Made by a program: the position numbers and the translations under genes
NCBI RefSeq assembly: GCF_963921235.1
Contig: NC_086097.1
Span: 37,140,001-37,204,000, forward strand
Reading direction: 5' to 3'
DNA from: Mobula hypostoma
Lineage: Eukaryota
Length of the DNA stretch: 64,000 nucleotides
Shown: positions 5,516 to 50,188 of the stretch, piece by piece
How the letters are laid out: each line of letters starts with the position of its first letter
Numbering within the stretch: the stretch's first letter is position 1
Notes under the pieces: model-generated
Seen by the model: the letters and a program-made list of their open reading frames with translations, nothing else
What the model was told of the DNA's origin: nothing
Database searches by the model: none

Positions 5516-5833
5516 GTTTTAGCTATCGAGAATGCAAGTTCTAAAAATGATACTCCAGGTGCATGAGCCACATTTGGGGTTGTTATGAAGATAGACGACT
5601 GGGGCTTAACACAGCACAAAAAATACAGAGCAGAAACTTGGCTGAACTGAAATTTATTGGAGATGGGGGCGGCAGTTGGAGGTTAATGATCATTGAGTAA
5701 TAAAGAAAAGCTATTAACTTTGGATTTAAAAACGCAAACAACAGGAGTTCTGCAGATGCTGGAAATTCAGGCAACACACATCAAAGTTGCTGGTTAACAC
5801 AGCAGGCCAGGCAGCATCTCTAGGAAGAGGCAC

Positions 5834-5869
5834 CGTCGACGTTTCAGGCCGAGACCCTTCGTCAGGACT
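5834..5869 (-). ncRNA. Minimal hammerhead ribozyme motif (PLE type)
   Basis: Minus: AGUC-CUGACGA-AGG gucucgg CCU-GAA-ACGU-C-GACG; core intact, 3 bp of helix I. Confidence 0.65.
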
Positions 5870-6017
5870 AACTGAAGGAAAAGTTAGTAAGAGATTTGAA
5901 AGTGGGAGGGGGAGATCCAAAATGATAGGAGAACTCCCCTTCCTGTCTTCTCCTATCATTTTGGATCTCCCCCTCCCCCTCCCACTTGCAAATCTCTTAC
6001 TAACTTTTCCTTCAGTT

Positions 6018-6053
6018 AGTCCTGACGAAGGGTCTCGGCCTGAAACGTCGACT
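6018..6053 (+). ncRNA. Minimal hammerhead ribozyme motif (PLE type)
   Basis: AGUC-CUGACGA-AGG gucucgg CCU-GAA-ACGU-C-GACU: helix I AGUC/GACU, helix II AGG/CCU, palindromic ACGU helix III. Predicted cleavage between 6049 and 6050. Confidence 0.72.
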
Positions 6054-7234
6054 GTGCCTCTTCCTAGAGATGCTGCCTGGCCTGCTGCGTTCACCAGCAA
6101 CTTTGATGTGTGTTGCTATTAAGTTTGGAGATACTTTACTGACAAATTGAGTCTGGTAGGGACAAATTTGGATTGTGTATGGTAGCAGAGATAGGTGGTT
6201 TTTGTCATACATCATGGAAACAGGATATTTGGCCCACCAGATCCATGCTGATTAGCAGGTGTCCTTCCTTATTAATCCTGATTTCCATCACTCAGTCTGA
6301 AGACTTCAACATATCCCCTAGGAATCTCTTACCGTTTGTTTATAGTTAGCTTTAATTTCAATTTTTAAATGATTCTCAAATTCTGTCATTTAATTTTTTT
6401 ATTAAATCCTCATAGAATTTATAGCCAGCAAAACTGCACAAGTGCTTTGCCAGCTGTCAAGGTTTTTGGGGTGTTTTAGGAACACAAGTCATGGAGTAAA
6501 AGTAACTTGTATTAATTCTGTTTCAAAAATTTCAAGCAATTATTCAAATTCTTATAACTGTGAGGAAGTCCCTCTAGTAGATATCCACATGCACTTATGA
6601 AGAAAAATCTAATGAATTTTAACATAAAAGTGTCTGAGAAAAACAAACTGACAGAGGCTAAGGGTCAAATCCTGGAATGCTTATATTTTTACTAAGCTCT
6701 GGAAAGTGATTATTAAATTTGGACACCAGGGAAATCATATCTGAAATAAGTTATATCATTGTCAACAACCAAGCGTCTGCATAGAATAATAGAAAGGTGC
6801 ATCACAGAAGGCCATTTCACCAATTAAGTCCACAACACACAGGAAAAATGGTTCTACAAAGTTCAATCACATTTCCTAGTTCCGGATCTGTTAACTTGGA
6901 GGTTTCAGTACAATATAATTTTTCAAGACAGTTTCAGATGGGATGAATGTTACTACATCTACCATTCATTCAGATAAATCTATTATCTAAATCCATATCC
7001 TTATTATTGACTTCACTTTTATGCAATACGTCTGTCTGAGCTCCTGTTTCTGAGATTTCTTAATTTTCATCCACTTCATTTAAATCTTCCCTGAACCGCC
7101 TCTGCTCCATAGATTAAATTAAGATTAATATTCAGATTAAATTAACCTTGAATTGTTAGCCTGGAGTAACAATGCCTGTTGAAAACAATAATAAAATAAG
7201 CCACTTAAAAATCACCATGTTACGGTTAAAAAAA

Positions 7235-7335
7235 AGAACACATTTAACTCTTGAGCAACACTCAGCCGGTCAGTGAGCATCTATGCAGGGGAAATAAATA
7301 GTTGATGTTGCGAGCTGAGACCCTTCATCAGGACT
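7235..7335 (-). mobile_element. Decayed PLE terminal-repeat remnant
   Basis: caacactcagccggtcagtgagcatctatg...gagacccttcatcaggac, homologous to the other PLE ends. Confidence 0.6.
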
Positions 7336-12955: not shown

Positions 12956-13573
12956 CACAAACAAGAGAAAATCTGCAGATGCTGGAAACCCAAGCAATAC
13001 ACTCAAAATGCTAGAGGAACTCAGCAGGCCAGGCATCATCTATGGAAAAGAGTACAGTTGACATTTCGGGCTGAGACCCTTCAGCAGAACTGGAGAAAAA
13101 ATGCAGAGTAGATTTAAAAGGTGGGGTGGGGAAGAACGGCGAGTCTGATAGAGAAAAAACGTCCAGTAGCCTCCAACCTGATGACATGAACATCGATTTC
13201 TCAAACTTCTGTTAATGCCTCCCCTTCACCATTCCCCATCCCCTTTTCCCTCTCTCACCTTATCTCCTTGCTCACCCATCGCCTCCCCCTTTTTCTTTCT
13301 TCCATGGCTTTGTCTTCTTCTATCAGACTCCCCCTTCTTCAGCCCTGTATCTCTTTCACCAATCAATTTCCCAGCTCTTTACTTCATCCCTCTCCCTTCA
13401 GGTTTCACCTATCACCTTGTGATTCTCTCTCCCCACCCCCACCACCTTTTAAATCTACTCCTCAGCTTTCTTTTTCCAGTCGTGCTGAAGGGTCTCCGCC
13501 TGAAACATCGACTGTACTCTTTTCCACAGATGCTGACTGCCCTCTAAATTCCTCCAGCATTTTCTGTGTGTTG
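12956..13573. mobile_element. PLE 3' fragment with inverted terminal repeat
   Basis: Tail-bearing arm on minus (12956-~13165); plus arm from the GIY-YIG end (SLQPDDMNIDFS) to tgtgtgttg. TSD CTAAAATTTCCTTTT (12941-12955) / CTATAATTTCCTTTT (13574-13588). Confidence 0.82.
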
Positions 13574-14112
13574 CTATAATTTCCTTTTTCTTAAACCTCC
13601 CTCAATTAATGACACTTGCTATTTTCACAGTCCTCCAGAACCATTCCTGAATCTAGTGGTTCTAAAAAGATTATTACCAATGCCTCTGCAATCTCTTCAG
13701 CTACTTCTTTCCTGACTATCTGACCGATAGACCCCAGTTTGTGCAGCTGGGTAGTTCTCTGTGTGACATAGTGGTCAGTGGCACTGGAGTGTCACAAGGG
13801 ACTGTCCTTTCTCCATTGCTGTTTACACTGTACACCTCAGACTTCCAGTACAAATCTGAGTCTTGTCACTTGCAGAAGTTCTCTGATGACCCTACTGTGG
13901 TTGGGTGTATCAGACTTGGGCAAATCGTTTAATGTGTGCAGCAGAATGTTGGGGATCTTTTATCAGTCTGTTGTAGTGATTGCTTTGAATCTTTACATTG
14001 GGGGAGCAGCATTGGTGCTGGTGATGCAAAAAAACTAAACCAACTCATCAAGAAACACATAAAAGTTGCTGGTGAACGCAGCAGGCCAGGCAGCATCTCT
14101 AGGAAGAGGTAC

Positions 14113-14148
14113 AGTCGACGTTTCGGGCTGAGACCCTTCATCAGGATT
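14113..14148 (-). ncRNA. Minimal hammerhead ribozyme motif in the PLE terminal repeat
   Basis: Minus: AAUC-CUGAUGA-A-GGG ucucag CCC-GAA-ACGU-C-GACU; one mismatch in helix I. Confidence 0.62.
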
Positions 14149-14736
14149 AACTGAAAGAAGAGATAGTAGGAGATTTGAAAGTGGGAGGGGGACGGGAGAT
14201 CTGAAATGATAGGAGAAGACAGGAGGGGAAGGGATAGAGCTAAGAGCTGGACAGTTGATTGGCAAAAGGGATATGAGAGGATCATGGGATGGGAGGCCTA
14301 GGGAGAAAGAAAGGGGGAGGGAGGAAGCCCAGAGGATGGGCAAGGAGTATAGTGAGAGGGACAGAGGGAGAAACAGGAGAGAGAGAAAATTAATAAATAA
14401 TGGTTGGGGTACAAAGGGGAGGTGGGGCATTAACGGAAGTTAGAGAAGTCAACGTTCATGCCATCAGGTTGGAGGCTACCCAGACGGAATATAAGGTATT
14501 GTTCCTCCAACCTGAGTGTGGCTTCATCTTGACAGTAGAGGAGGCTGTGGATAGACATATCAGAATGGGAATGGGGTGTGGAATTAAAATGTGTGGCCAC
14601 AGGGAGATCCTGCTTTCTCTGGCGGACAGAGCGTAAGTGTTCAGCCTGCTTCAGGTCTCGCCAATATAGAGAAGGTCGCATCAGGAGCACCGGACGCAGT
14701 ATATCACCCCAGCCGACTCACAGGTGAAGTGTCGCC

Positions 14737-15756
14737 TCACCTGGAAAGACTGTCTGGGGCCCTGAATGGTGGTGAGGGAGGAAGTGTAAGGGCATGTGTA
14801 GCACTTGTTCCGCTTACTAGGATAAGTGCTGGGAGGGATATCGGTGGGAAGGGATGGTGGGGGGACGAATGGACACGGGAGTCGCATAGGGAGCGATCCC
14901 TGCGAAAAGCAGACGGGGGGGGGGAGGGAAAGATGTGCTTAGTGGTGGGATCCCGTTGGAAGTGGCGGAAGTTACAGAGGCTAGTGGGGTGGTAAGTGAG
15001 GACAAGGGGAACCCTATTCCTAGTGGAGTGGCGGGAGGATGGTGTGAGAGCAGATGTGCGTGAAATGGGAGAGATGCGTTTGAGAGCAGAGTTGATGGTG
15101 GAGGAAGGAAAGCCCCTTTCTTTAAAAAAGGAGGACATCTCCTTCATTCTGGAATGAAAAGCCTCATCCTGAGAGCAGATGCGGTGGAGACGGAGGAATT
15201 GCGAGAAGGGGATGGCATTTTTGCAAGAGACAGGGTGAGAAGAGGAATAGTCCAGGTAGCTGTGAGAGTCCGTAGGCTTATAGTAGACCTCAATAGATAA
15301 GCTATCTCCAGAGATAGAGACAGAAAGATACAGAAAGGGGAGGGAGGTGTCGGAAATGGACCAGGTAAACTCGAGGGCAGGGTGAAAGTTGGAGGCAAAG
15401 TTAATGAAGTCAACGAGCTCAGCATGTGTGCAGGAAGCAGTGCTAATGCAGTCGTCGATGTAGCAAAGGAAAAGTGGGGGACAGATACCAGTATAGTTTT
15501 GGAACATGGATTGTTCCACAAAGCCAACAAAAAGGCAGGCATAGCTGGGACCCATATGGGTGCCCATGACTACACCTTCAGTTTGGAGGAAGTGGGAGGA
15601 GCCAAAAGAGAAATTATTAAGAGTAAGGACTAATTCCGCTAGACGGAGCAGAGTGGTGGTAGAGGGGCACTGGTTAGGTCTGGAATCCAAAAAGAAGCGG
15701 AGAGCTTTGAGACCTTCCTGGTGGGGGATGGAAGTATATAGGGACTGGACATCCAC
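14737..15756 (-). pseudogene. PLE reverse transcriptase ORF remnant (339 aa, frameshifted before GIY-YIG)
   Basis: ORF track. RT motifs are present; the frame is lost after ...RDRSLCDS and the endonuclease is read in other frames (14681-14887, 14430-14690). Confidence 0.88.
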
Positions 15757-17960
15757 GGTGAAAATAAAGCAGTGGGGGCCAAGGAACTTAAAATCATAGA
15801 AAAATTTCAGAGTGTGAGAAGTGTCACGAACATAGGTGGGAAGGGATTAACAAGGGGGGGATAAAACAGTGTTGAGGTATGCAGAAACGAGTTCAGTGGG
15901 GCAGGAGCAAGCTGAGACAATGGGTCTGCCAGGACAGGCAGGTTTGTGGATCTTGGGTAGGAGGTAGAAACGGGAAGTGCGAGGTGTGGGAACTATAAGG
16001 TTGGTAGCAGTGGATGGGAGATCCCCTGAGCGGATAAAGTCGGTGATGGTGTGGGAGACAATGCCCTGGTGCTCCTTAGTGGGGTCACAATCGAGGGGTA
16101 AATAAGAGGAGGTATCCGCGAGTCATCGCTGTGCCTCAGCAAGGTAGAGGTCAGTACGCCAGACTACAACAGCATCCCCCTTATTGGCGGGTTTAATAAT
16201 AAGGTTAGGATTAGTGCGGAGGGAGTGGAGAGCAGAGTGTTCAGGAAGAGTGAGGTTGGAATGGGAACAAGGTGTGGTGAAGTCGAGACGGTTGATGTCC
16301 CGTCGGCAGTTAGCAATAAAAGAGATCCAGAGCAGGCAGAAGACCAGAGCTGGGTGTCCATGAAGAGGAGGAGGGTTGGAGAAGGGGTCATCAGTGGGGG
16401 TGGAAGAGTCCTTGCCAAAGAAGTAGGCTCGAAGACGAAGCCAGCGGAAGAAGAGTTCAGCGTCATGACAAACGCAGAACTCGCTGTGGTGTGGGCAAAG
16501 GGGAACAAAGGTGAGGCCCTTACTGAGGACAGAGCGCTCTGCCTCAGACAGTTTATCAAAAAGGCTGAATCCATCCTTAGCTACAATCCGGACTCTTTTA
16601 AGTTAGTGGTGGAGAGGAGGTCACTAAACAAACTGTTATCCATTATGGACAATCAGGCACATCCTCTCCATGACCTACTGAATAAGCAGCAGAGCACTCT
16701 TTCAGCTCCTTTCGGGTTCATTCAGTTCTGCTGTCACAAGGATCGTTGCAGGAAATCTTTCCTACCAAATGCAGTAAGCATATATAACAGTTCATCTCTG
16801 CGCGACAGGAAAGCACACATCATAGTACAATAGTCTGTTTTATTATTTTGTAAATTATTATTGCACATTGGCAAATTATTATTGTGTATATTATTATCCT
16901 CTATTCATTACTGGTTAAGTCTTCACACTGCTAAGTGTGTTTTTAAATGTTGCTGCTGTAAAAAAAGAATTTCCCACTCGTGATCAATATTTATTATTAT
17001 TATTCATCCTTGGGTGTAGTCCAACTGTCCCGGTGATTTAGCTACCATCAGATCTTTCAGCTTCCCAAGCACCTTCTCTTAGCAATTGAAATGACACTCA
17101 CTTCTGCCCCTGACATTCTCAAATTTCTGACATACTACTAGTGTCTTCCACAGTAAAGACTGGCACAAAATACTTCTTAATATGTCTGCCATTTCTTTGT
17201 ACCCCATTATTGCCTTTCCTGCATCATTTTTCCAGTGGTCCAATACCCACGCTCGATTCTCTTTTACTCTTCACATATCTGAAAAACTTTTTGTATCCTC
17301 TTTTGTATTATTTTAGATGCCTTCTGATTGTTTTCTTTAAGCTTTCCAATCCTCTAACCTCCACTATTTTTTTTGCTATACTATATGCCCTCTCTTTGCC
17401 TTTTATGCTGTCTTTGACTTCCCTTGTCAGCCATGGTTCCCTGCAGAATACTACTTCATCTTTGGCATGTATTTTTCCTGCGCTTTCCAAATTTCTCTCA
17501 TAAACACCAGCTATCACTATTCTGTCATCATCCCTGCTACGGTCCCCTTCCAATCAACTTTGGCCAGTTCCTTTCTCATGCCTCTGTAATTCCCTTTAAT
17601 GAGAAAGGCCAGATGGGTTCAAGCTGACAGGAAGGCAATGTAACTCAAATAACCATGTGTTACATCAGTGATGTGCAGGAGCATCTCTGAATGCACAACA
17701 CGTGTAGAAGACCAGTAGAAGACAGTAGAAGACTATGAACATTACATGCAGTGGCCACTTAATTAGGTACAGGAGATATCTAATAAAGTGCCCACTGGGT
17801 GTATTTCATTTACAATAAAGGAAGTTTACACAGTGCCGATGGGATTATACCTGGTTTTTAAAAAAAGTCTGATCTTAAGGTTTCCATATTGGAAGCAGTG
17901 CATTGGTAACTCGTTGACTCCTGGGATGAAGGGAATTACCTACAAATAGAGGTGGAATTA

Positions 17961-20750
17961 CATAAGAACACAAGAAATAGGAGCAGGAGTAGGCCATCCG
18001 GCCCATTGAGCCTGCCCCGCCATTCAACAAGATCATGGCTGACCTGTCCGTAAACTCAGCTCCATATACCTGCCTTTTCCCCGTAACCCGTAATTCACCT
18101 ACTATGTAAAAATCTATCTAACTGTATCTTAAATATATTTAGTGAAGAAGCCGCAACAGCTTCCCTGGGCAGAGAATTCCACAGATTTACCACTCTCTGG
18201 GAAAAAGTTTCTCCTCATCTCCATCCTAAATCTTCTCCCCTGAATCTTGAGGCAATATCCTCCAGTTCTAGTCTCACCTACCAATGGAAACAACTTTCCT
18301 ACTTCTATCTTATCTATCCCTTTCAAAATTTTGTATGTTTCTATAAGATCCCCTCTCATTCTTCTGAACTCCAGAGAGTATAGTCCCAGGCAACTCAATC
18401 TCTCCTCATAGGTTAACCCCTTCATCTCTGGAATCAACCTGGTGAACCTCCTCTGCACTGCCTCCAAAGCCAGTATATCCTTCCTCAAGTATGGAGACCA
18501 GAACTGCACACAGTACTCCAGGTGCTGCCTCACCAGTACCCTGTATAGTTGCAGCATGACCTCACTGCTCTTGAATTCAATCCCTCTAGTAATGAAGGCC
18601 AACATTCTGTTTGCCTTCTTAATAACCTGTTGTACCTGCAAGCCATCTTGTTTCAATTCATGAACAAGCACTCCCAAGTCCCTCTGCACAACAGCATGCT
18701 GCAATCTTTCACCATTTAAATAATAATCTGCTCTTCTATTATTCCTTACAAAGTGGATGATCTCGCATTTACCAACGTTGTATTCCATCTGCCAGACCTT
18801 GGCCCACTCACTTAACTTATCTATATCCCTCTATACGAATTGATTTTCCATTCAGTTTAGTGTCATCAGCAAATTTTGCTACGCTACACTCAGTCCCCCC
18901 TTCCAAATCATCAATGTAAATGGTAAACAGCTGTGGGCCCAGCACTGACCCCTGCAGCACCCCACTCACCACTGACTGCCAACCAGAGAAACACCCATTT
19001 ATACCAACTCTCTGCCTTCTATTGGTTAACCAATCCACAATCCATGCCAATACACTTCCTCCGACTCCATGCATCTGTATCTTATTTATAAGCCTCTTGT
19101 GCGGCACCTTATCGAACGCCCACTGGAAATTCAAGTATACGACATCCACCTGTTCCCCTCTATCCACCGCACTCATTATGTCCTCAAAGAGCTCCAGTAA
19201 GTTTGTCAAATAGGACCTGCCCTTTCTGAATCCATGCTGCATCTGTCTAATGGAACCAGTCCTTTCTAAATGTTTCGCTACTTCTTCCTTAATGACGGCT
19301 TCAAGCATTTTCACAACTACAGATATTAAGCTAACTGGCCTATAATCGCCCGCCTTTTGCCTACATCCTTTTTTAAAAAGTGGCGTGACATTTGCTGTCC
19401 TCCAATCCACCAGGAATTGCCCAGAGTCTAGAGAGTTTTGATAAATGATTACCAACTCGTCTATTTTAACCTCTGCCAATTCCCTCAGCACCCTGGGATG
19501 CATCCCATTAGGACCAGGGGACTTATCTACCTTCAGGCCCTCTATTTTGCTCATCACTATCTCTTTAGTGACAGTGATTTTATCGAGGTCCTCACCTCCC
19601 ATTTCATCCATAACATCCTTCTTTGGCATATTAGACATGCCCTCCACTGTGAAGACCGACACAAAATAGTCGTTCAACGCCTCAGCCATTTCCTTATCGC
19701 CCAATATCAATTCCCGCTTCTCGTCTTCCAAGGGACCTACCTTGACTTTAGCCACCCTCTTCCGTTTTATATATTTATAAAAACTTTTGCTATCTGTTTT
19801 TATATTTTGTGCTAATTTACTTTCATACTCATTCTTCCCTTTCCTTATTTCTTGTTTAGTTGCTCTTTGTTGCTTTCTAAAGTTTTCCCAATCCTCCAGT
19901 CTCCCACTACTCTTTGGAACTTTGTACACATGAGCTTTTAATTTGATATTATCTTTTACTTCCTTAGTTATCCGAGGCTGGCTCTCCCCACACTTACTGT
20001 ATTTACTTTTGACTGGAATATACTTTTGTTGAGCACCGTCAAAAACCTCTTTGAAAGTATTCCACTGTTCCTCAACTGTCCTACCAATTAACCTGTGCTC
20101 CCAACCCACATCAGCCAACTCCCCCCTCATCCTGTTGTAGTCTCCCTTGTTCAAGCTTAATACACTAGTTTTAGATCTAACTATTTCATCCTCTATCTGT
20201 ATGCGAAATTCAATCATACTATGATCACTCTTTCCAAGAGGATCCCTGACTACAAGATTGTTAATCTTACCTGTCTCATTGCACAAGACTAGATCTAAGA
20301 TAACATTTTCCCTTGTAAGTTCACTAACATGCTGCTCAAGAAAGCCATCACAGATGCATTCTATGAAGTCCTCCTCAAGTCTTCCTAGACCAACCTGATT
20401 CACCCAATCTATGTGGAAGTTAAAATCCCCCATGACAACTGCCGTTCTGCTCTTACAAGTCTCAGTTATTTCTTGGTTAATCACCTCTGCCACTGCAATA
20501 TTTTTATTAGGTGGCCTATAGACAACACCCACCAGTGATTTCTTCCCTTTACTATTCTTAACCTCTACCCAGATGGACTCAACATTCTGCTCTGTAGATC
20601 TTATATTGTCTCTCACAATCGCCCTGATCTCATCCCTAATCAAGAGCACCACCCTACCTCCTCTGCCCTCCTGCCTATCTTTCTGTATTACCTGATACCC
20701 TTGGATATTTCATTCTCAGTCATCTCTACCTTGCAACCAGGTTTCTGTAA
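17961..20750 (-). mobile_element. CR1-family LINE, 5'-truncated, relatively young ORF2 (APE + RT)
   Basis: 611-aa ORF 18817-20652 (GVVYRPP, MGDFN, LDLV, SDH, YRPVSL, QGSVLGP, KFADD) plus 219-aa C-terminus 18129-18788. Small deletion/frameshift near 18820-18840; 3' end at ~17961. Confidence 0.95.
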
Positions 20751-23100: not shown

Positions 23101-24894
23101 ATACCTATAATGAGAAAGGGGCTTCAATGAAAATTAAGAGGAAAAAGGATAAAAACAGAGGTTTGGAAAGACTAAAAATTATTAATAAGATGACCCTAAG
23201 ATATTGAAAGTAAAGATAAAGGAGGCTGCATAGAGGGAACGAGCAGATAGCTCCAAAGTTCATGATTGAGAGTTGCACAGAACCTTGCAGAAAGATTACA
23301 CAAGCAACTCCAATGGGAAACATTGGAAAGCAAGCCTTAAAATGATGTGAAAATGCTACACTGATGTAATTTTGCAACTATTCCCCTATGAATTACAGGA
23401 ATCCCATTCTTTCAGTTTCAGGTCAGTACTAAACGTTTTTTGGGATCAATTCCTGATGTGTCCCTGTCTGCTCTGTTTTCACCACTGATTTGTTTTCCTA
23501 AACAATAGATCTGAACCAATAGACCTAAACCTTGAGTGCGATTGTTTTCCCAAACACAAAAGAAATCTTGTTTCTGTATATCAGGAATTTATATCTCAAG
23601 GATACAAGCGTAATTGCCACCTGGAACCTGAAGTCAATTAAAAATATATTAATGGTTCCCAACTGTATTAGTTTAGTAACATATTAAAACTGAATGGACA
23701 ATAGCCCCTTTTAGTTCTCTATCAAGCACAACGGACATATAAATGGGGTAAAAAAAAAATTGGACTTTGTTTCTGAACTGTAGTACTTTTAAAATTGTAT
23801 TCAATCCTCTTAGCAGCACTAAATATAAGTTGTTTTGATCAATACGCAAGATATTTCAAGTCAATCAATACATCTTCTTGCAAAATGAAGCTATAATCAG
23901 CAATGAAAAACAGCCAATTATTTTCTATAGTTTTTGAGGATAAATACCATACGTCTATCTTCAGCAACTTTTCACCACACATACCAAAATCATTATCTTC
24001 TTACATAATCCCTCAGAATGAAGAATGATTTGCTCCCACATCATTTTTTTTGCGGGGTTCTGAAATGGCTAATGAGGCCCATGAGGCCCAAATTTCCCTC
24101 ATTTTAGTAGTCAGGAACAAGAGGCTCCCAAAATTCAGTGAAAGCACTGGACATTTTCAAGCTTTGAGAACATCATAGAAACTTTTTCCTGTCACTCTTG
24201 CAACCTTTTCCCATATGTTCTCCCACAACAGTGTCAAGAGACTGGTGTTAGGCATGTAAACAACACAGCCTGCCAAATACAACCAACACAGAGTAACTAA
24301 GGCCTCCATGCTGGAAATGTTAGCCTAGAAGAAGACACTGATATTGGTTTGCCTATTTTTCTAATAAATATCAATAGTATTTTTCATTTCTTTAATTAAT
24401 TCTGGTAAAGCACCCGGCCTGGATGGGTATACAGTAGAATTTTAAAAATCTTTTTCAAGTCTACTTTCTCCTTGGTTATATAGAGTTTTTAAGGATGCCT
24501 TATTTGTAGATAAATTACCACAATCTTTCTATGAAGCTCTGGTTCTTCAATTCCTAAAAAAGGTAAAGACCCCACTGAATGTGCATCATATAGACCTATA
24601 TCCCTGTTAAATGTGGACTCCAAAATTTTTTCCAAAATATTAGCAATTAGATTGGAAAATGTATCGCCACAAATTGTTTCTGACGACCAGACAGGATTTA
24701 TTAAAAATTGTTATTCATATTTTAATGTTAGGAGGTTGATGAACATTGTATATACTTCATCTAAAACTCTAGAACATGTTATTTCACTTGACGCCGAGAA
24801 GGCATTTGATAGATTTGAATGGGAATATTTATTTAACATCCTTGAGAAATTTAATTTTAGCCCAAAATTCATAGCTTGGATTAAATTGATATAC

Positions 24895-27672
24895 TTTACT
24901 TTATACTTTATTCTCACCAAACAATTGGTACTAGGACGTACAATCATCACAGCGATATTTGATTCTTATAGTCATAGTTATACTTGACTGATCCTCAGGG
25001 AAACTGGTTTTCGTTACAGTTGCACCAACCAAGAATAGAGTATAAATACAGCAATATAAAACCATAAATAATTAAATAGTAATATGTAAATTATGCCAGG
25101 AAATGTCCAGGACCAGCCTATTGGCTCAGGGTGTCTGACCCTCCAAGGGAGGAGTTGTAAAGTTTGATGGCCACTGGCAGGAATGACTTCCTATGACGCT
25201 GTGTTGCCTCTCAGTGGAATGAGTCTCTGGCTGAATGTACTCCTGTGCCCTACCAGTACATTATGTAGTGGATGGGAGACATTGTCCAAGATGGCATGCA
25301 ACTTGGACAGCATCTTCTTTTCAGACACCACCATCAGAGAGTCCAGTTCCATCCCCACAACATCACTGGCCTTACGAATGAGTTTGTTGATTCTGTTGGT
25401 GTCTGCTACCCTCAGCCTGCTGCCCCAGCCACAACAGCAAACATGATAGCACTGGCCACCGCAGACTCGTAGAACATCCTCAGCATCGTCCGGCAGATGT
25501 TAAAGGACCTCAGAATCCTCAGAAAATAGAGGCGGCTCTGACCCTTCTTGTAGACAGCTTCAGTGTTCTTTGACCAGTCCAGTTTATTGTCAATTCGTAT
25601 CCCCAGGTATTTGTAATCCTCCACCATGTCCACACTGACCCCCTGGATGGAAACAGGGGTCACTGGTGCCTTAGCCCTCCTCAGGTCCACCACCAGCTCC
25701 TTAGACTTTTTCACATTAAGCTGCAGATAATTCTGCTCACACCATGTGACAAAGTTTCCTACCGAGTCCCGTACTCAGCCTCATCTCCCTTGATGATGCA
25801 TCCAACTATGGCAGAGTCATCAGAAAACTTCTGAGGATGACAAGACTCTGTGCAGTAGTTAAAGTCCAAGGTGTAAATGGTGAAGAGAAAGGGAGACAAG
25901 ATAGTCCCCTGTGGAGCCCCAGTGCTGCTGATCACTCTGTTGGACACATAGTGTTGCAACCACACGTACTGTGGTCTGCCAGTCAGGTAATCAATAATCT
26001 ATGACACCAGGAAAGCATCCACCTGCATGGCTGTCAGCTTCTCCCCCAACAGAGCAGGGCGGATGGTATTGAACGCACTGGAGAAGTCAAAAAACATGAC
26101 CCTCACAGTGCTCGCTGGCTTGTCCAGGTGAGCGTAAACACGGTTCAGCAGGTAGACAATGGCATCCTCAACTCCTAGTCGGGGCTGGTAGGCGAACTGG
26201 AGGGAATCTAAGTCTGGCCTAACCATAGGCCGGAGCAGCTCCAGAACAAGTCTCTCCAGGGTCTTCATGATGCGGGAGGTCAATGCCACCGGTCTGTAGT
26301 CATTGAGGCCGTTGGGGCGTGGCGTCTTCAGCACAGGGACGAGGCAGGACGTCTTCCACAGCACAGGAATCCTCTGGAAACTCAGGCTCAGGTTGAAGAT
26401 ATGGTGAAGTACTTCACATAGCTGAGGGCACAGGCTTTGAGCACCCTGGTACTGACACCATCCGGGCCTGCAGCCTTGCTTGGGTTGAGAGGCTTCAACT
26501 GTCTTCTCACCTGTCCAGCTGTGAAGCCCACCATGGTAGTTTTGTGTGGGGAAGGGGTATATTCTGCACTTCCCACTCCCTGGATTACAAATATTAAATA
26601 TTAAAAATATTTAAAATAGTTAATATCAGTAAATATTAAAAAGTTAAATTATAAATCATGAATAGAAAATTAGAAAAATGGGAAGTAAGGTAGTACAAAT
26701 AAAACCCGAGAGGCAGGTCCGGATATTTGGAGGGTACGGCCCAGATCCGAGTCAGCATCCGTTCAGCAGTATTATCACAGTTGGAAAGAAGCTGTTCCCA
26801 AATCTGGCCGTATGAATCTTCAAGCTCCTGAACCTTCTCCCGGAGAGAAGAGGAACGAAAAGTGTGTTGGCTGGGTGGGTCGTGTCCTTGTCTATCCTGG
26901 CAGCACCGCTCTGACAGCGTGCGGTGTAAAGTGAGTCCACGGACGGAAGATTGGTTTGTGTGATGTGCTGCGCTGTGTTCACGATCTTCTGCAGCTTCTT
27001 TCGGTCTTGGACAGGACAACTTCCATACCAGGTTGTGATGCACCCTAGAAGAATGCTTTCTACGGTGCATCTATAAAAATTAGTGAGGGTTTTAGGGGAC
27101 AGGCCAAATTTCTTTTGTTTTCTCAGGAAGTAAAGGCGCTAGTGGGCCTTCTTGGCAGTGAACTCTGCTTGGTTGGACCAAGTCAGGTCATTTGTGATAT
27201 TGACCCCGAGGTACTTAAAGCTTTTGACCTGTTCCACTTGCGCACCACCGATGTAAATGGGGTCGTGCGGTCCGCTACTCCTTCTAAAGTCAACAACCAA
27301 TTCCTTCGTCTTGCTGACGTTGAGGGATAGGTTATTGTCTTCACACCATGCCACCAGGTTCTTAATTCCCTCTCTGCACTCAAACTCATCATTACCCGAG
27401 ATACGGCCTACAATTGTTGTGTCATCAGCAAACTTATATATTGAATTTGATGGAAACTTGGCTACACAATCATGGGTGTACAGCGAGTACAGCAGGGGGC
27501 TGAGTACACAGCCTTGTGGGGCACCGGTGCTCAGAGTGATTGTAGAGGAGAGCTTGTCCCCTATTTTTACAGCCTGGATCCTGCCTGTGAGGAAGTTGAA
27601 GATCCAGCTGCAGATCTGAGTGCTAAGGCCCAGGTTCCGGAGCTTAGGAATCAGTTTATTTGAAATGATGGT
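24895..27672 (-). mobile_element. Rex1/Babar-like LINE family A (pieces 24895-24967 and ~26561-27672)
   Basis: [49 protein letters not shown]. The 3' UTR is split at ATTCT by family B. Confidence 0.85.
24968..26560 (-). mobile_element. Rex1/Babar-like LINE family B, RT to 3' end
   Basis: WKTSCLVPVLK..DYRPVALTS..FFDFSSAFNTI..GAPQGTILSP..KFSDD..GQSRLYFLR; (ATGACT)-like tail. Confidence 0.9.
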
Positions 27673-28892
27673 ATCATATACCTTTGGCTTCTGTACTTAC
27701 TAATAATCAGAGATCCCCTTTTTTTAGGCTTTTTTGAGGTACAAGGCCATCCTTTAAGCCCTTTACTATTTGATATTCCTTGGAACCCTTGGCAATCACT
27801 CTTCGTGATTCACCCGATGTATTTGGTATTATTCAAGGGAATGAGACGCATAAGGCATCTTTATATGCAGATGACCTGTTACTATACCTCTCTAATCCAG
27901 AGAAATCCATCCCTGTAGTAATATTATTACTCGCTCAGTTTAGTAGTTTTTCTGGTTATAAATTGAATCTTAATAAGAGTGAGCTTTTTCCATTAAATAT
28001 GCAAGTTCCAATCGATAGACAATCACCATTTACACTGGTTACTGATTATTTTACTTATTTGGGTGTTAAAATTACTAAGAAGCATAAGGATCTATTTAAA
28101 GTTAACTTTTTACCCTTAATTGATCATGTTAAACAACTGCTTACTAAATGGTCCCCACTGTCCCTATCATTGATTGGTCGATCAATGCTATTAAGATGAT
28201 TATTTTACCTAAATTTCTGTATCTATTTTAGGCGGTACCAATCTTCATCTCTAAATCCTTTTTAGATATTATTGATTCTAAAATTTCTTCATATATATGG
28301 CAGAATAAAAATCCTAGATTAAGTAAGCAATATTTACAGAGATCAAAAAAGGATGGCGGTTTGGCATTGCCGAACTTTAGATTCTATTATTGGGCAATTA
28401 ATATTCGATACCCTAACGTTCTGGACACAAGATTTGGATGAAATTCAATGTCCACAATGGGTGAACCTCGAGTGACAGTCTGTACAGGGGTTCTCATTGG
28501 CTTCTATTTTAGGGGCTTCGCTTCCCTTTGCACTCACTAAACTGAATAAACAAACGATTAATCCAATAATTAAACATACAATATGTATATGGTTTCAATT
28601 TCGTAAATTTTTTGGATTGAATAAATTTATCCTATCAAGTCCTATTATATCCAATATTTTCTTCCAACCATCCAGAACTGATCAAGCTTTTATGGAAAAT
28701 GAAGGGAATAATATGTTTTCATGATTTATTCATGGATAATTGTCTCATGTCCTTTGAACAGTTGTGTAATAAACATAATTTGCCTAAATCACATTTTTTT
28801 CAGATATTTACAGATTAGAAACTTTTTGAAGGTTATTTTACCTACTTTTCCAATATCACATCAAACTAAAATTACAGAAAATGTCTGTAGAA

Positions 28893-33577: not shown

Positions 33578-33584
33578 TTTTTAT

Positions 33585-34775
33585 AAACTGACTTACGCCC
33601 ATGGCTATCTTGACGATAGCTCTTCCTACTCTGCCTCCTGTAAAAATGCCATTCCCTTTTCTCAGTTCCTTCGCCTCCACCGCATCTGTTCCCAGGATGA
33701 CATTTTTCTTTCCAGGACATCAGAGATGTCTTCCTTCTTCAAACAATGGGGTTTCTCTTCCTCCACCATTGATGCTATCCTCACCTGTATCTCTTCAATT
33801 TCCTGAACATCCGCACTCACCCAATCTTCCCACCACGTTAACAAGAATAGTATTCCACTTGTCCTCACCTACCACCCCGTGAGTCTTCACATGCAGCACA
33901 TTATTCTCCACAACTTCCGCCATCTGCAATGGGACCGTACCACCAAGCTCATCTTTACCTATCACCATTCTATGCTTTCCACAGGGATCACCCCCTCTGT
34001 GATTCCCTCGTCAATTTGTCCCTCCCCACTAATCTCCCTCCTGGCAGTTATTCCTGTAAGTGGAAGAAGTGCTACACCTCCCTTTCAACTCCCCACTCAC
34101 CTCCATTCAGGGCCTCCATCAGTCCTTCCAGATGAGGACCTGCAAATATGTAGGGGTCATCTATTGTATCCGGTGCTCTCAATACAGCCTCCTCTACATT
34201 GGTGAGACCCGATATAGATGGGGGGGGGGGGTCAAGCACCTTTGCTCCAGAAACAGGATTTCCCTGAGGCCAACAATTTAAATTCCAATCCCCATTCCCA
34301 TTCCAACATGCTGGTCCATGGCCTCCTCTACTGCCACTATGAGGCAATTCTCAGGTAGGAAGAGCAACACACCTTATATTCCATCTGGGTAGCCTCTAAC
34401 CTGATGGCATGAAAGTCGATTTCTCCAGCCTCGGGTAATTTTTCCCCCTCCCCCCTTCTTTTTCAATTCTCCGCTCTGACCCCCATATACCTTTTCTCTT
34501 CTCCTCACCGACCTATCACTTCCTCCAGTGCCTCTCCTCCTTCCTTTTCCATGATCTACTTTCCCCTTCTATCAGATTTTTTCTTTTCCAGTCCTTTACC
34601 TTTCCCACTTATCCCCTCCAAGCTCCTCACTTAATCCCTTTACTTCATTTCCTTCATCGATTTTGACCCAAAACGTTCACTGTTTATTCATTTCTCGACA
34701 CGTTGTTTGACCTTTTGAGTTCCTCCAACATTTTGTGTGTATTGCTCAGGATTTCGAGCATCTGCAGAACCCCTT
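33585..34775 (+). mobile_element. PLE 3' half, decayed
   Basis: AIPFSQFLRLHRICS, GVIYCIRCSQYSLLYIGET, GSL.PDGM; ends gcatctgcagaac. Confidence 0.85.
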
Positions 34776-35419
34776 GGACGTAGAGCAGCCTTTCTCAACC
34801 TTTTTGCCCTGAAGGAACCCTTGAGATAATTTTCAGGTCTCAGGGAACCAAGCATAAAAATTATTATGCCTAGAGCTCACAGTACATTAGTGTGATCAGC
34901 ACGTTGTAGATATAACAATCCAAAAATAATTCTTAATGCTCTTTTGACTAGAGAATTAGTTTTTAGCAAACCTTTCTTGAAAAAAAAGATAGTTAAGGTT
35001 AGATTACCTTTCTTGAAATTAATCTTTCTTTCTCTTTCATAAATTTTAAAAACTCATAAGGCAAACATAATAAATTTCTCAATTCTGGGTTGAACTTGAG
35101 GTAAGTACACATGGATATCACCTTCTACTGAAATGATACAATTTCTATCCTTGTTCTTAATGCTTGTTAAACAAGAAAGAGCTTGCTCACTCATGTAAGA
35201 GGTTGAAAACTGCAGAAAAATGTTCATTGCTTTCCTATGAATGGAAGGATACTCTTCTTTCACAGAAATCCATAACTTATCCAGGCACAGGTCAATAAAT
35301 CTCATCTTGAGTGCATGATCAGAGTGCAGCTCACAAAGTTCTTCCTCTTCTCTCAAAGTCAAGTTCTCAGGCTGAGCAGAAGGTTCAGAGAAAGGATCTT
35401 TCACCCAGTCATACACTTA

Positions 35420-37883
35420 TACTGAGGATAAACATTGTTTCGGAGGGATAGGAAGGTCAGCAGAGGGGGTGGTATGGCTCTGCTGGTAAAGAATCGCATC
35501 AAATCAGTAGAAAGACGTGACATAGGATCGGAAGATGTTGAATCCTTGTGGGTTGAGTTAAGAAACTGCAAAGGTAAAAGGACCCTGATGGCAGTTATAT
35601 ACATGCCTCCCAACAGTAGCTGGGATGTGGACCAAAGATTACAACAGGAAATAGAAAAGGTGTGTCAAAAGGGTAATGTTATGATAGTCATAGGAGATTT
35701 CACCATACAGGTCAATTGGGAAAATCAGGTTGGAAATGGATCTCAAGAGCGTGAGTTTGTTGAATGCTTATGAGATGGCTTTTTAGAGCAGCTTGTCATT
35801 GAGACTACTAAAAAAATGAGGAAGGTGCAGGATAGAGGTATTCCAAAGACAAAGAAATACTCAAATGGCAAAATAGTACAACGGTGGCTGACAAGGGAAG
35901 TCAAAGCTAATGTAAAAGAAAAAGAGAGGGCATACAACAAAGCAAAAATTAGTGGGAAAGCAGAGGATTGGGAAGCTTTTAAAACCCTACAGAGAGCAAC
36001 TAAAAGAATCATTAGAATGGAAAAGATGAAACATGAAAGTAAGCGAGCAAACAATATCAAAGTGGAAGATAAAAGCTTTTTCAAGTATGTAAAAAATAAA
36101 AAAGAGATGAGAGTGGATATTGGACCGCAAGAAAATGAAGCTGAATAATAATAATGGGGGCCAAGGAGATGGCAGATGAACTGAATTGAGTATTTTGTAT
36201 CAGTCTTCACTGTGGAAGACATTAGCAATGTGCCAGGTGTCTTCCACAGATGTCTTGAAGGGTGTGAGGGAAGAGAAGTGAGTGCAGTTACTATTACAAG
36301 GGAGAAGGTGTTCAAAAAGCTGAAAGACCCAAGGATACGCAAGTCACCCAGACCAGATGAACTGCACCCTAGGGTTCTGAAAGAGGTAGCGGTAGAGATT
36401 GTGGAGGCAGTAGTAATGATCTTTCAACAATCGTCGGACTTTGGCATGGTGCCAGAGGACTGGACCATTGAAAATGTCACTCCACTCTTTAAGAATGGAG
36501 GGAGGCAACAGAAAGGAAAGTATAGACCAGTTAGCCTGACCTCAGTGGTTGGGAAGATGTTGGAGTCAATTGTTAAGGGTGAGGTTATGGAGTACTTGGT
36601 GACACAGAACAAGTTAGAACAAAGTCAGCATGATTTCATTAAGGAAAAACAGGAAAAGAGCCTGTTGGAATTATTTGAGGAGATTACAAATAGGATAGAT
36701 AAAGGGGATGCAGTGGATGTTGTATATTTGGACTTTCAGAAGGCCTCTGATGAGGTGCCACACATGAGGCTGCTTACTAAGTTAAGAGCCCATGGCATTA
36801 CAGGAAAGACACTGGCATGATTAGCGCATTGTCTGATTGGTAGGAGGTAGCAAGCAGGAATAAAAGGATCCTTTTCTGGTTGGTTGCTAGTGGTGTTCCG
36901 CAGGGACTGGTGTTGGGACTGCATCTTTTTATGCAGTATATCAATAATTCAGATGATGGGATAGGTGGCTTTGTTGCCAAGTTTGTAGATGATACAAAGA
37001 TTGGTAGAGGGGCAGGTAGTATTGAGGAAACAGGTAGGCTGCAGGAGGACTTCAACAGATTAGGAGAATAGGCAAGATAGTGGCAAATTAAATACAATTT
37101 TGGAAAATGCATGGTCATGTACTTTGGTAGTAGAAATAAATATGCAGACTATAGTCTAAGCAGGGAGAAAATACAAAACTCTGAGATGCAAAGGGACTTG
37201 GGAGTCCTTATGCAGTACACCCTAAAGGTTAACTTGCAGATCAAGTCGGTGGTGAGGAAGGCAAATGCAGGGTTAGCATTCATTTCAAGAGGTCTAAAAT
37301 ACAAGAGCAAGGATGTGATGCTGAGGCTTTCTAAGGCACTGGTGAGGCAGCACCTTGAGTATTGTGAACAGTTTCGGGCTCCTCATCTTAGAAAAGATGT
37401 GTTGGCATTGGACAGGGTTCAGAGGAGGTTCACAAGGATGATTCTGGGAATGTAAGGGTTATCATTTGATAGCTCTGGGTCTCTACTCACTGGAATTTAG
37501 AAGGATGAGGTGGGATCTCATTGAAACCTTTCGAATGCTTTAAGGTCTAGACACAGTAGATGTGGAAAGAATGTTTCCCATGGTGGAGAAGTCTAGGACA
37601 AGAGGGCACAGCCTCAGGATAGAGGGGCACCCTTTTAAAACAGAGATATGGAGAAATTTCTTTAGCCAGAGGGTGATGAATTGTGGAATTCATTACCATA
37701 GGCAGGTATGAAGGCCAGGTTGCTGGGTGTACTTAAGGCAGAGCTTGTAGGTTCTTGATTGGACACAGCATCAAAGGACAACGGGAAGGCCAGGGAGGGG
37801 GGAAAAAAAGGAACAGCCATGATTGAATGGAGAAACAGACTCAATGGGCCAAATGGCCTAATTCTGCTCATACGTCTTATGGT
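35420..37883 (+). mobile_element. CR1 LINE ORF2 remnant inserted in the hAT
   Basis: ORFs 35435-35773, 35816-36148, 36212-36820, 36880-37071 and 37111-37455 are collinear APE/RT pieces; 3' end tcttatggt. Confidence 0.92.
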
Positions 37884-38644: not shown

Positions 38645-39330
38645 TAGTAGTCATAGTCATACTTTATTGATCCCGGAGGAAATTGGTTTTCGTTACAGTT
38701 GCACCATAAATAATAAATAGTAATAAAACCAGAAATAGTTAAATAGTAATATGTAAATTATGCCAGGAAATAAGTCCAGGACCAGCCTACTGGCTCAGGA
38801 TGTCTGACCCTCTAAGGGAGGAGTTGTAAAGTTTGATGGCCACAGGCAGGAATGACTTCCTATGACGCTCTGTGTTGCATCTCGGTGGAATGAGTCTCTG
38901 GCTGAATGTACTCCTGTGCTCTACCAGTACATTATGTAGTGGATGGGAGACATTGTCCAAGATGGCATGCAACTTGGACAGCATCCTCTTTTCAGACACC
39001 ACTGTCAGAGAGTCCAGTTCCATCCCCACAACATCACTGGCCTTACGAATGAGTTTGTTGATTCTGTTGGTGTCTGCTACCCTCAGCCTGCTGCCCCAGC
39101 ACACACCAGCAAACATGACAGCACTGGCCACCACAGACTCGTAGAACATCCTCAGCATCATCTGGCAGATGTTAAAGGACCTCAGTCTCCTCAGGAAATA
39201 GAGACGGCTCTGACCCTTCTTGTAGACAGCCTCAGTGTTCTTTGACCAGTCCAGTTTATTGTCAATTCGTATCTCCAGATATTTGTAATCCTCCACCATG
39301 TCCACCCTGACCCCCGGATGGAAACAGGGG
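38645..39330 (-). mobile_element. Rex1/Babar-like family B 3' fragment
   Basis: ORF 38787-39305 (YKYLEIRIDNKLDWS..GQSRLYFLRRL..RKSFLPVAIKLYN); tail gtcatagtcatac; near-identical to 24968-25660. Confidence 0.9.
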
Positions 39331-39354
39331 TAAGTAGCTTCATTGTAAAGCTAT

Positions 39355-45527: not shown

Positions 45528-46082
45528 AAAGCAACACACACAAAATGCTGGAGGAATTCAGCAGGTCAGGCAGCACCTATGGAAAAGAGTAAACATTCGA
45601 CATTTCGGGTCGAGACCCTTCTTTATTACTGAGGAGGAAGGGGAAAGACGTCAGATTAAAAAGGTGGGGAGGGGAAAAAGACTAGCTGGAAGGTGATAAG
45701 TGAAGCCAGATGGATGGGAAAGGTCATAATCTGATAGGAGAGGAGAGTGGACAATAGAAGAAAGAGAAGGAGGAGGGGACCCAGGAAGAAGTAATAGGCA
45801 GGTGAGAAGTAGTAAAGACTCAGTGGAGAACAGAGGATGGGAGTGCAGGCAAATTTGTTCATCAGAAGGAAAGATCAATATTCATGCCATCAGGTTACAG
45901 GGTACCCAGACAGAACCTAGAGTGTTGCTCCTCCTTGAGGGTGGCCTCATCTTAGCACAAGAGAAGGCCATGGAATGACACATTGGAACAGGTGTGGGAA
46001 TCTAAATTAAAATGTTTGGCCACTGTGAAGTCCCACTTGTGGCAGATGGTGCAGAGGTGCCCAACAAAAGGGTTCCTCAACT
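45528..46082 (-). mobile_element. PLE 3' fragment
   Basis: gcaacacacacaaaatgctggaggaattcagcagg...ttcatgccatcagg..acccagac, collinear with 14052-14660. Confidence 0.8.
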
Positions 46083-48185: not shown

Positions 48186-49698
48186 ATCTCATTTGACAAG
48201 TCTAGAAACAACTGCCAACCAACTTAACAGCCAGCAAATGAATTGTTTCTCACTGAATTATTGCACCTCAAATAACAAGAGAAATAACAATATCCAGAAT
48301 ACCAATGCATTAATAAAAAGCACTGAGCCTCAGATAGGGAAAAATAAGTAAACCTGCAGGGAACGGAAAAAAATTAAAGTTAAGATGTATTTAATGTACT
48401 CTCAACAGACTAAGCAGAAAATAAACCACACTGTGTTTAACATTATCATCAGCACAGATGTTCATAAATTTTGACGTGTTTTTCCCACTCACTGAATGTC
48501 CCAGAAGGATTGCAAAACAGAGAAAACACCAAATAGCTGAAAGTGCAATAATTTTTCCTGGAAATTATACTTATTTCCTGTTCAGTTAATGGCTGAATGC
48601 ATAAAAAATGTTATTAAAATTAATGGTAACTTAACTATGATTAATTTACATTTTGCACAAATATTAAAAGTGAAATAACTGCTAAATTCATTTGGTTTAT
48701 ACTCGTCTCATAAATGCTTACTATCGACAATGACTCGACCTTGGCATGCATGGAAGTGCCAAGTGGCTGATGATAAGCGACAGCTTTAATGATGAATGGG
48801 TTAAAATACAGTTGTTATTATGGAAAAATGTATAAAATGTACAATTATATACTAGGACGTTTGTTGGGGCTGTATTTTTACATCTACTTAGTATTCCACC
48901 AGTTGCCAATACACATGTTGGTGCCAATCAGACATTTGCTGCAACACTTAGCAAAACCTAATTAATCATTGCAGCCTGTTCCTCCTTTCACAAATCTGGC
49001 CGTTTTCCAGTAAGTCAGACTTTTTCAAATCAGTTCAATCCTTTTCAGCAAGCATTCAAATGTTTAAAAATAATATGATCAATGACCTACATAACAGTAG
49101 ATTTTCTGTGGTTATATCCTACTACTTTTTTTGTCTCAGAGACAAGATAGTAATGGCTCGAGGCTTGTCATATACATTCATTCCATTGACCTCTGAAATG
49201 ACCTATGCAAAGGCAGTCATGCATTGCACTATGGTATAAATCTTCACAGACAAGTAAAACCTGTTCTGTTTGGCATGAAGCCCTCTAGCTGTAAAAGCTA
49301 CTCACATTTATGGAGGCGAGTAAGAAGGGGCTACATTTACAGAGCACATATCATTCAACATGTAGCACACTTTGCACTATTAAAAAAAAACAATGATTAG
49401 ATGAATACATTTTACTTAAAAGAACCAACTCAACAAATAGACACAAAATAACTGAAACATCTATTTAACCACTAGGTGTTCAAACTTCCCTATTTTTCAA
49501 AATTTTTACATATATGTACACCTTGAAATGAGTTTACAAGGTATATTATAAAATTGTTTACAATATATCATTGACTCAATGCTCATACACTGAAAACTGT
49601 GAAACAGTGTACTAAGTGTTATTTTTCCAATTATTATTTCCAGTTATTATTTGATTATGGAACATATTCTAATTCCAAAAAGGTAACTTTTCTACAAT

Positions 49699-49903
49699 CA
49701 TCATAGTTGCTGGTGAACGCGGCAGGCCAGGCAGCATCTGTAGGAAGAGGTGCAGTCGACGTTTCAGGCCGAGACCCTTCGTCAGGACTCGGCCTGAAAC
49801 GTCGACTGCACCTCTTCCTATAGATACTGCCTGGCCTGCTGCATTCACCAGCAACTTTGATGTGTGTTGCTTGAATTTCCAGTATCTGCAGAATTCCTGT
49901 TGT
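49699..49903. mobile_element. PLE terminal-repeat fold-back insertion
   Basis: Arms 49699-49773 and 49788-49862 inverted, 14-nt spacer, ~41-nt tail on the right. Perfect 15-bp TSD TAACTTTTCTACAAT (49684-49698 / 49904-49918). Confidence 0.92.
49754..49789 (-). ncRNA. Minimal hammerhead ribozyme motif, sense to MNAT1 pre-mRNA
   Basis: Minus: AGUC-CUGACGA-AGG gucucgg CCU-GAA-ACGU-C-GACU; all core positions and helix I intact. Confidence 0.72.
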
Positions 49904-50047
49904 TAACTTTTCTACAATATTTATTTTGGTGCTCGTTAAATTTTATGATTAATTATGGTGATATCTTTTAGAGTTTTTGTTTTATTTGAGAAGTATAAGA
50001 AATGAAAGAGGAAACTTAAGAGGGAAAGCAGGAGGGATAAAAGAAGG

Positions 50048-50188
50048 AGTCCTGATGAGGGGTCTCGGCCCAAAACGTCGACTGGTTACTCTTTTCCATA
50101 GATGCTGCCTGGCCTGTTGAGCTCCTCCAGCATTTTGTGTGTGTGTGTGTTGCTTGGATTTCCAGCATTTGCAGATTTTCTCTTGTTT
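50048..50188 (+). mobile_element. 141-bp PLE-end insertion starting at the hammerhead motif
   Basis: Perfect 14-bp TSD GGGATAAAAGAAGG (50034-50047 / 50189-50202). Begins AGTC-CTGATGA; GAAA mutated to AAAA; internal (TG)n. Confidence 0.88.

Follow-up and report, generated by a model that had tools for sequence, protein, structure and literature searches.

Minimal hammerhead motifs in the ends of a Penelope-like element of Mobula hypostoma: conservation, breakpoints and two-armed insertions

Hammerhead copies and insertions in the window

The window, i.e. the whole 64,000-nt stretch of Mobula hypostoma DNA analysed here, contains twelve copies of a 36-nt hammerhead ribozyme (HHR) motif. They were found by an ungapped Hamming scan with the copy at 6018-6053 (+) as the query and have 0-11 mismatches; with the same scan, the best match in 30 shuffled windows has 13-16 mismatches. 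The query copy has an intact core and a predicted cut after C6049. On the opposite strand, the copy at 5834-5869 (-) has one mismatch and an intact core, has lost the last pair of helix I, and has its predicted cut after 5838. A second full copy without mismatches is located at 49754-49789 (-). Four mismatches are present in the copy at 14113-14148 (-), which belongs to a long broken Penelope-like element (PLE), and also in the copy starting at 50048 (+), where G12 is changed to A.

Four copies of an old subfamily carry a C at position 6: 13478-13513 (+, 5 mismatches, also C3>G), 13056-13091 (-, 7 mismatches), which is head to head with it, 62622-62657 (+, 7 mismatches) and the decayed copy at 60886-60921 (-, 11 mismatches), which is apparently head to head with an arm at 61383-62750 (+). 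An old-type copy at 45595-45630 (-) is decayed and has a broken core (8 mismatches), while the decayed and isolated copy at 7300-7335 (-) is from a more distant subfamily (7 mismatches). The last copy, at 49772 (+), is a junction chimera with 8 mismatches. Its 3' half was overlooked in an earlier note on this DNA, which otherwise placed the copies correctly to within a few bases.

One insertion, flanked by a target-site duplication (TSD), has the copies at 5834 (-) and 6018 (+) in its two antisense arms. Both arms are 5'-truncated 3' ends of a PLE, the left one (5731-5933, -) with a long tail of ~64 nt and the right one (5934-6116, +) with a short tail of ~30 nt. The 15-bp TSD was overlooked by the automatic caller and read by eye; its copies are 5710-5724 and 6115-6129 (14/15 identical), with 6 extra nt between the left copy and the tail. 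The arms are 97% complementary, and a transcript of either strand carries one hammerhead and its antisense copy. In the predicted hairpin (-319 kcal/mol) every base of 6018-6052 pairs with the antisense arm. The two arms bury each other in this hairpin and would therefore be unable to dimerise in cis.

A palindrome as stable as 5731-6116 could serve the host, for example as a domesticated ribozyme or a hairpin of miRNA type. The best Rfam matches are miRNA-hairpin models on the palindrome, every one under the gathering score, and they arise because the insertion forms a hairpin; any inverted repeat scores in this way. Further, this is a young insertion of a very common form and there is no sign of locus-specific conservation, which makes a host function extremely improbable. 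A hammerhead family is absent among the 24 Rfam matches at E<=5, which is uninformative because the motif is without helix III.

The second two-armed insertion, at 49699-49903, joins the hammerhead at 49754-49789 (-) to the 3' half of another at ~49785-49807 (+), and is flanked by a 15-bp TSD (49684-49698 and 49904-49918). Next to it, a single-arm insertion of the old type (50048-50188, +) starts exactly at the 5' end of the hammerhead and has a 14-bp TSD (50034-50047 and 50189-50202). Two further pairs, near 13.1 kb and 61.4 kb, appear to be arranged head to head too, so that eight of the twelve window copies fall in four two-armed insertions.

The parent element

A long, 5'-truncated and broken PLE copy at 14050-16553 (-) contains the RT, the C-terminal GIY-YIG region, the 3' UTR, the hammerhead and a short tail. 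Its broken ORF, 16551-14454 (-), aligns along an 806-aa RT and GIY-YIG protein (tblastn E 3e-171 and 1e-24), and the hammerhead begins ~280 nt beyond the stop. The motif follows closely on the ORF, and ~95 nt separate it from the long 3' end. We found 125 longer homologues, many with both the RT and PF01541, and the best named vertebrate RT homologue is from bamboo shark, with 66% identity. For the broken copy itself Pfam gives a weak RVT_1 match alone, and the endonuclease piece is without a GIY-YIG match.

Ahead of the endonuclease (EN) lies a Cys-rich linker, which has the expected form Cx2-5CxxC between RT and EN. The window copy retains CxxC with the first Cys replaced, and a copy from another locus (L012) has Cx4CxxC, read by eye. 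Such a linker is given for Neptune and Nematis (PMC8557442). The carrier is an endonuclease-bearing (EN+) Penelope element, which we label Neptune-like from the linker, a motif that Nematis also has. Among the four long copies examined of 40 matches, there is no full-length copy with an upstream terminal repeat (pLTR); all four are 5'-truncated and three have an inverted arm. Older PLE copies lie at 33582-34439 (+) and 61383-62389 (+); across the RT and endonuclease their identity to the 14-kb copy is ~70%.

The tail after the motif (6068-6116 and 5731-5820) is conserved about as well as the motif stems and can form short hairpins. It is likely a protein-binding and priming signal.

The window also contains many broken RT/endonuclease fragments of non-LTR retrotransposons, at 18129-20709 (-), 35743-37455, 24535-24987, 25412-28199 and 38787-39350. 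Pfam RVT_1 and endonuclease matches are obtained for 18820-20709, and the remaining fragments we take to be CR1-, L2- or L1-like, with labels given by eye. A 120-aa frame at 35054-35416 (-) presumably resembles the C-terminal part of a hAT-type transposase.

Anatomy and folding of the motif

At 6018-6053, helix I is AGUC/GACU, the core is CUGACGA...GAAA and helix III is the palindrome ACGU, which 5834-5869 has as well. The cleavage triplet GUC, of the NUH type, lies ahead of the predicted cut, and core and triplet span 6022-6049. The earlier parse, AGUC-CUGACGA-stem II-GAA-ACGU-C-GACU with a cut after C6049, was correct, except for the register of stem II. Read as AGG/CCU, as had been proposed, 75.8% of the cells are paired and the stem has an energy of -1.1 kcal/mol, compared with 95.5% and -2.3 kcal/mol for a bulged A followed by GGGU/RCCY. 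At 6018-6053 the better register gives a bulged A after A9 and then a 4-bp stem II with G10.1.U11.1. Registers shifted by 1-3 columns have only 16-49% of the cells paired, against 86% in helix I and 95.5% in helix II.

The variable pair of stem II is GC in six of eleven copies, GU in four and another combination in one, a one-sided change from G-C to G.U. The AGG/CCU and GGG/CCC forms taken for stem variation in the earlier note differ by a single substitution, C11.1>U, and are not compensatory; the covariation analysis that it had proposed gave, within the family, nothing better than shuffles. An extra A between positions 9 and 10.1 is present in 59/60 young and 12/12 old copies, and ACGU is the majority sequence of helix III in both groups. 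The 10.1-11.1 pair is G-C in 9/12 old copies and a G.U wobble in the query copy and in 50/60 young ones. Position 11.1 in the young lineage is T in 74 copies and C in 19, compared with merely 10 T in 83 at the comparable CpG at N7, and judging from these counts U11.1 is inherited within the young lineage.

The minimum free energy structure of the isolated 36-mer is a closed rod that pairs the core GACG with CGUC, at -10.0 kcal/mol compared with -6.0 kcal/mol for the hammerhead fold. This predicted core-sequestered fold is in line with an inactive monomer. The computed energy of the ACGU duplex is weak, -3.1 kcal/mol.

Abundance and conservation

A genome-wide motif search, as proposed in the earlier note, gives 104,874 exact matches (52,309+52,565) of the core pattern CTGANGANN{6,24}GAAACGTH in the 3.48-Gb genome, and 2,471 (1,254+1,217) for the reversed control. 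The 20-nt tail anchor has 156,383 genome matches and none in the control.

The 60 young and 12 old copies have a common majority base at all core positions (12/12) and at 17/18 positions of the stems. In the upstream 5' flank this holds for only 20/45 positions, and in the 3' spacer for 8/14. The agreement is intermediate in the tail (25/32); the 20-nt anchor downstream of the hammerhead is as conserved as the motif (19/20), but the anchor was the selection criterion. The earlier note had made its reading depend on a core better conserved across subfamilies than the flanks, and this is what we observe. Its identification of the motif as a PLE minimal hammerhead with a palindromic ACGU helix III agrees with the anatomy, the PLE context and the conservation. 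The motif class is already known and the head-to-head arrangement of PLEs has likewise been described; a literature search for minimal hammerheads in sharks found nothing relevant.

A pattern search for longer stems, with ACGU required, gave 1,123 matches and 200 in the control. About 60 of the first 100 matches listed, read by eye, are from a second family with an unrelated 7-bp stem II and the same core, extra nucleotide and 10.1-11.1 pair. The core is conserved across subfamilies and families, and the motif is therefore selected at the level of the element; we infer that selection acts on the source elements and not on the passive genomic copies. The second family has several hundred intact cores, for instance C1:13386822-13386857. 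In four public runs from four organisms, which are assembled contigs presumed to be RNA and carry no start, end or strand information, loose ends of other subfamilies cluster at both borders of the hammerhead (24 rows listed of 1,790).

The 36 nt could also be conserved by coding, splice or promoter constraint on the pLTR. A stop-to-stop frame spans the motif, and the ORF of the Anolis element PAc starts in stem II (PMC11167929), but subfamilies vary by 1-2 nt in the length of spacer and tail, which breaks any common frame, and the second family changes the whole of stem II and keeps its pairing and the core. A splice signal would agree with the AG-ending pyrimidine tracts on both sides of the motif: a branch-point-like CTAAC, a pyrimidine tract and CAG just before it (6002-6015, +, and other copies), and, immediately behind it, a second pyrimidine tract that ends with AG-ATG (6054-6070, +, and other copies). 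In the Penelope element of D. virilis, an intron ends at helix I (PMC4209133). However, no splice joint beside the motif is present among the 15 joints listed of 140, from assembled contigs presumed to be RNA, and the intron idea is unsupported by these joints. Taken together, constraints of this kind are a very improbable explanation of the conservation.

Core variants have also been amplified. The A6C pattern has 5,275 matches genome-wide (control 328), and the transition A6G 3,094 (control 1,792). The flank TTCTCCAG marks a subfamily of 7,230 copies; in the first 100 matches listed with this flank, position 6 read by eye is C in 76, A in 17, T in 5 and G in 2, and with a looser flank the first 100 listed have 26 C, 66 A, 5 G and 3 T. 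By these counts, amplification of a subfamily with an A6C core has reached thousands of copies. A6C, a variant known from nature, has very little activity at 0.3 mM Mg2+, recovers in part at 1-10 mM Mg2+ and works well in Mn2+ (PMC7151607, PMC3088659). The presence of G10.1.U11.1 in the dominant young subfamily and of A6C in an older one suggests a weak constraint on catalysis.

About 17 of 100 rows listed for A6G (for example C1:25082786-25082818) belong to a third repeat, in which the core is CUGGAGA, with G at position 6, GAAACGUC is present and stem II pairs poorly; CUGAAGA relatives occur among the longer-stem matches listed. This is possibly a family amplified after the loss of the ribozyme.

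Breakpoints of truncated copies

The structural counts cover the window and 94 loci, which together hold 115 distinct copies with a tail. The loci were mostly selected (30 by likeness to the query, 30 by an intact core and 30 by the tail anchor), 60 of them come from the first megabase of one contig, and the arms of a pair are non-independent. In the breakpoint analysis the selection was handled by left truncation.

A start at the cut site is expected 18 nt upstream of the anchor. Only 1/96 young copies ends within 15-21 nt, and this one is explained by microhomology. In contrast, 19 breakpoints are found 37-56 nt upstream of the anchor, i.e. in the 5' half of the motif. The breakpoint rate in this bin, which was picked after viewing the data, is 8.1 times that of the rest of 0-219 nt (p 8e-10) and 4.2 times that of the neighbouring bins. 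The excess is 8.6-fold in copies outside visible pairs and 6.4-fold inside them. Three young-lineage 20-mers occur 102,666, 72,366 and 58,992 times genome-wide, so that the loss per nt across the hammerhead is 2.2 times that over the next 61 nt, or 2.9 times when calibrated with the sample. Very short palindromic insertions are also found (L062, L068, L031 and L069/L070), with a central junction that recurs at a GTC/GAC microhomology inside the 5' end of the motif.

As the 5' breakpoints lie in the 5' half of the motif and not at the cut site, the template would have been uncut RNA. The pattern fits an uncut template on which the RT stalls, or junctions form, within the motif. It matches what is reported for an Anolis PLE, whose hammerhead cleaves with the help of the protein, a step that insertion in vitro does not require (PMC11167929).

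Efficient and obligatory cleavage, yielding unit or circular RNA templates by retrozyme-like processing, has been proposed for PLEs (PMC4209133), and a core that is intact in ~10^5 copies is in line with it. However, the majority of the copies read through the uncut site, with no breakpoint peak there, head-to-tail monomer arrays are absent from the tail-anchored sample, and minimal hammerheads cut poorly in vitro (PMC4209133). We consider obligatory cleavage improbable. The earlier note had also inferred that the genomic copies seen here process PLE RNA; the burial of the first pair in its hairpin, the lack of a breakpoint peak at the cut site, the amplification of A6C and the one-sided change in stem II leave this unsupported.

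Two-armed insertions

In all 22 insertions with both arms visible, one tail is long (~64 nt) and the other short (16-37 nt). Long tails occur in 52/115 copies overall and in 15/33 single-arm young copies. A TSD of 10-17 bp, mostly 13-16 bp, was found automatically in 19/22 pairs, compared with 17/3000 in the null. The arm lengths within pairs correlate, with a Spearman coefficient of 0.83 on 3-kb loci, which favour short pairs. Three apparently single-arm insertions with a short tail (L079, L087, L088) keep an inverted long-tail remnant of 10-45 nt at the 5' end, as if a second arm had collapsed early.

An ungapped comparison within pairs and between copies showed no difference (0.068 vs 0.062), and aligned marker-site tests were used instead. 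The arms differ at 62/317 marker sites (20%); the corresponding values are 3.7% at invariant sites and, with randomly chosen partners, 32%, although the background is taken from invariant columns, which may mutate less readily than marker columns. With strict non-CpG markers, 6/20 young pairs differ at 3-7 sites (p<0.01 each, uncorrected) and one further pair is borderline (3/30 sites, p 0.04, uncorrected). The other 13/20 differ at 0-1 marker sites, many of them with just 6-8 sites, and fit one template as well as two. The pair at 5731-6116 is concordant (0/14). In five pairs (L008, L009, L010, L016, L020) each arm has 5-34 unlinked copies that are closer to it than its partner. Perfect 13-bp TSDs flank 5/7 of the discordant or borderline pairs, which are therefore single events.

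An antisense self-priming model has been described for PLE arms (PMC3846280). Fold-back copying of one template predicts identical arms at insertion, and the six young pairs whose arms differ at three or more subfamily-marker sites suggest that it is disfavoured. Two RNA templates are suggested as the simplest reading of the arm differences, and priming on two templates, taken on its own, is the explanation that we slightly favour. The main alternative is ectopic conversion, because the haplotypes are mosaic, with 153/435 marker pairs failing the four-gamete test. We found no statement of two templates for PLEs in the literature searched, with key subscription papers outside it.

The motif might instead persist chiefly for RNA-RNA pairing or protein binding, as a dimerisation signal that unites two templates in one PLE complex, with catalysis being vestigial. 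Such a signal would account for the strict tail asymmetry, the correlated arm lengths and the discordant young pairs, several with arms closer to unlinked copies, as well as for the clustering of breakpoints in the hammerhead and the amplification of the A6C and G.U subfamilies. In addition, a dimeric form is predicted for PAc, which extends both strands (PMC11167929). On the other hand, Naiad PLEs, which are without canonical hammerheads, still show inverted copies and one-sided tails (PMC8557442). Across unrelated families the catalytic residues G8 and G12 and the NUH site are kept, none of which is needed for pairing alone, the ACGU duplex is weak, and ectopic gene conversion among 10^5 copies could also make the arms differ. 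On balance, a mainly structural role is doubtful.

Proposed mechanism

Taken as a whole, the observations are probably best explained by a type I minimal hammerhead of a PLE pLTR with a weak, dimer- or protein-dependent cut, an uncut 3' copy and priming at two ends. The monomer RNA would fold its core shut, GACG with CGUC, and would cut weakly. Cleavage would occur when two element RNAs pair through ACGU and/or when the PLE protein refolds the RNA, and it would release the 5' end of the element RNA from an upstream read-through transcript. The 3' copy would have to stay uncut for insertion because a cut there would sever the priming tail from the body.

Insertion would begin on both sides of a staggered cut, with priming at the distal tail site for one end and at the proximal tail site for the other. 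The two cDNAs would be extended in parallel, would often stall in the hammerhead and would then be joined head to head. It is possible, but unlikely, that an asymmetric dimeric complex holds two RNAs, with ACGU pairing them in trans, stalling both RTs and allowing template recombination, in a manner that can be likened to a retroviral dimer. Within that proposal, the hammerhead as the interface has a lower probability than the two-template part. If it were true, the partner required by the dimer model would come in trans from the ACGU pairing.

The insertion-level signatures (breakpoints, tails and arms) lift this locus above an ordinary repeat. With ~10^5 young copies, both the role of the PLE hammerhead and the origin of head-to-head insertions become testable in one genome. 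In the sample, uncut templates and two source RNAs are better supported than fold-back self-priming, and such insertions hint that two RNA copies are inserted at once. Amplification proceeded despite A6C, a core variant known to perform poorly at low Mg2+.

Comparison with known systems

Minimal hammerheads in the pLTRs of metazoan PLEs were described by Cervera and De la Pena 2014 (PMC4209133) and Lunse et al. 2017 (via the review PMC6765202). The motif has in common with those of PMC4209133 the type I topology, a helix I of 4-5 bp, the extra nucleotide between 9 and 10.1, the palindromic 15.2-16.2 and a helix III without a loop, and there too the copies are mostly dispersed and single, with some close pairs on opposite strands. 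Differences are the 4-bp helix II, the A6C subfamily and the G10.1.U11.1 of the dominant young subfamily, a pair that is usually G-C in their set. The copy number is ~10^5 here, compared with ~4,000 in coelacanth and ~9,000 in Xenopus tropicalis, counted with different methods. Cartilaginous fishes find no mention in the sections of PMC4209133 consulted.

Neptune-clade EN+ PLEs and their insertion structure are described in Craig et al. 2021 (PMC8557442) and Arkhipova et al. 2013 (PMC3846280). As in those elements, the RT is followed by GIY-YIG with a Cys-rich linker, 5' truncation is heavy, and an adjacent inverted 5'-truncated copy occurs with a tail of 30-40 nt on one end and a TSD. The TSDs are mostly 13-16 bp here and 8-10 bp in the rotifer examples. 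Unlike in those PLEs, the tail asymmetry is strict (22/22) and the arms are often of different subfamily haplotypes, which is not predicted by the self-priming model of PMC3846280.

The Anolis Poseidon element PAc (Frangieh et al. 2024, PMC11167929) shares the two RT start sites that bound the tail. In PAc both DNA strands are cut and extended, and the hammerhead is protein-assisted and dispensable for insertion; Poseidon is a different clade from the Neptune-like element studied here.

The natural A6C hammerhead of phage Bcep176 (PMC3088659, PMC7151607) shares the CUGC-N-GA core. In the phage there is one such ribozyme; its helices are full, it performs poorly at low Mg2+ and it is active in Mn2+. 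Here, A6C belongs to a vertebrate retroelement subfamily of thousands of copies.

Finally, non-LTR retrozymes (bioRxiv 10.64898/2026.07.22.740005) also have a type I hammerhead, one derived from PLE pLTRs. Retrozymes are head-to-tail tandem units without an ORF, whereas the copies analysed here are truncated ends of an autonomous, ORF-bearing element, either single or joined head to head.
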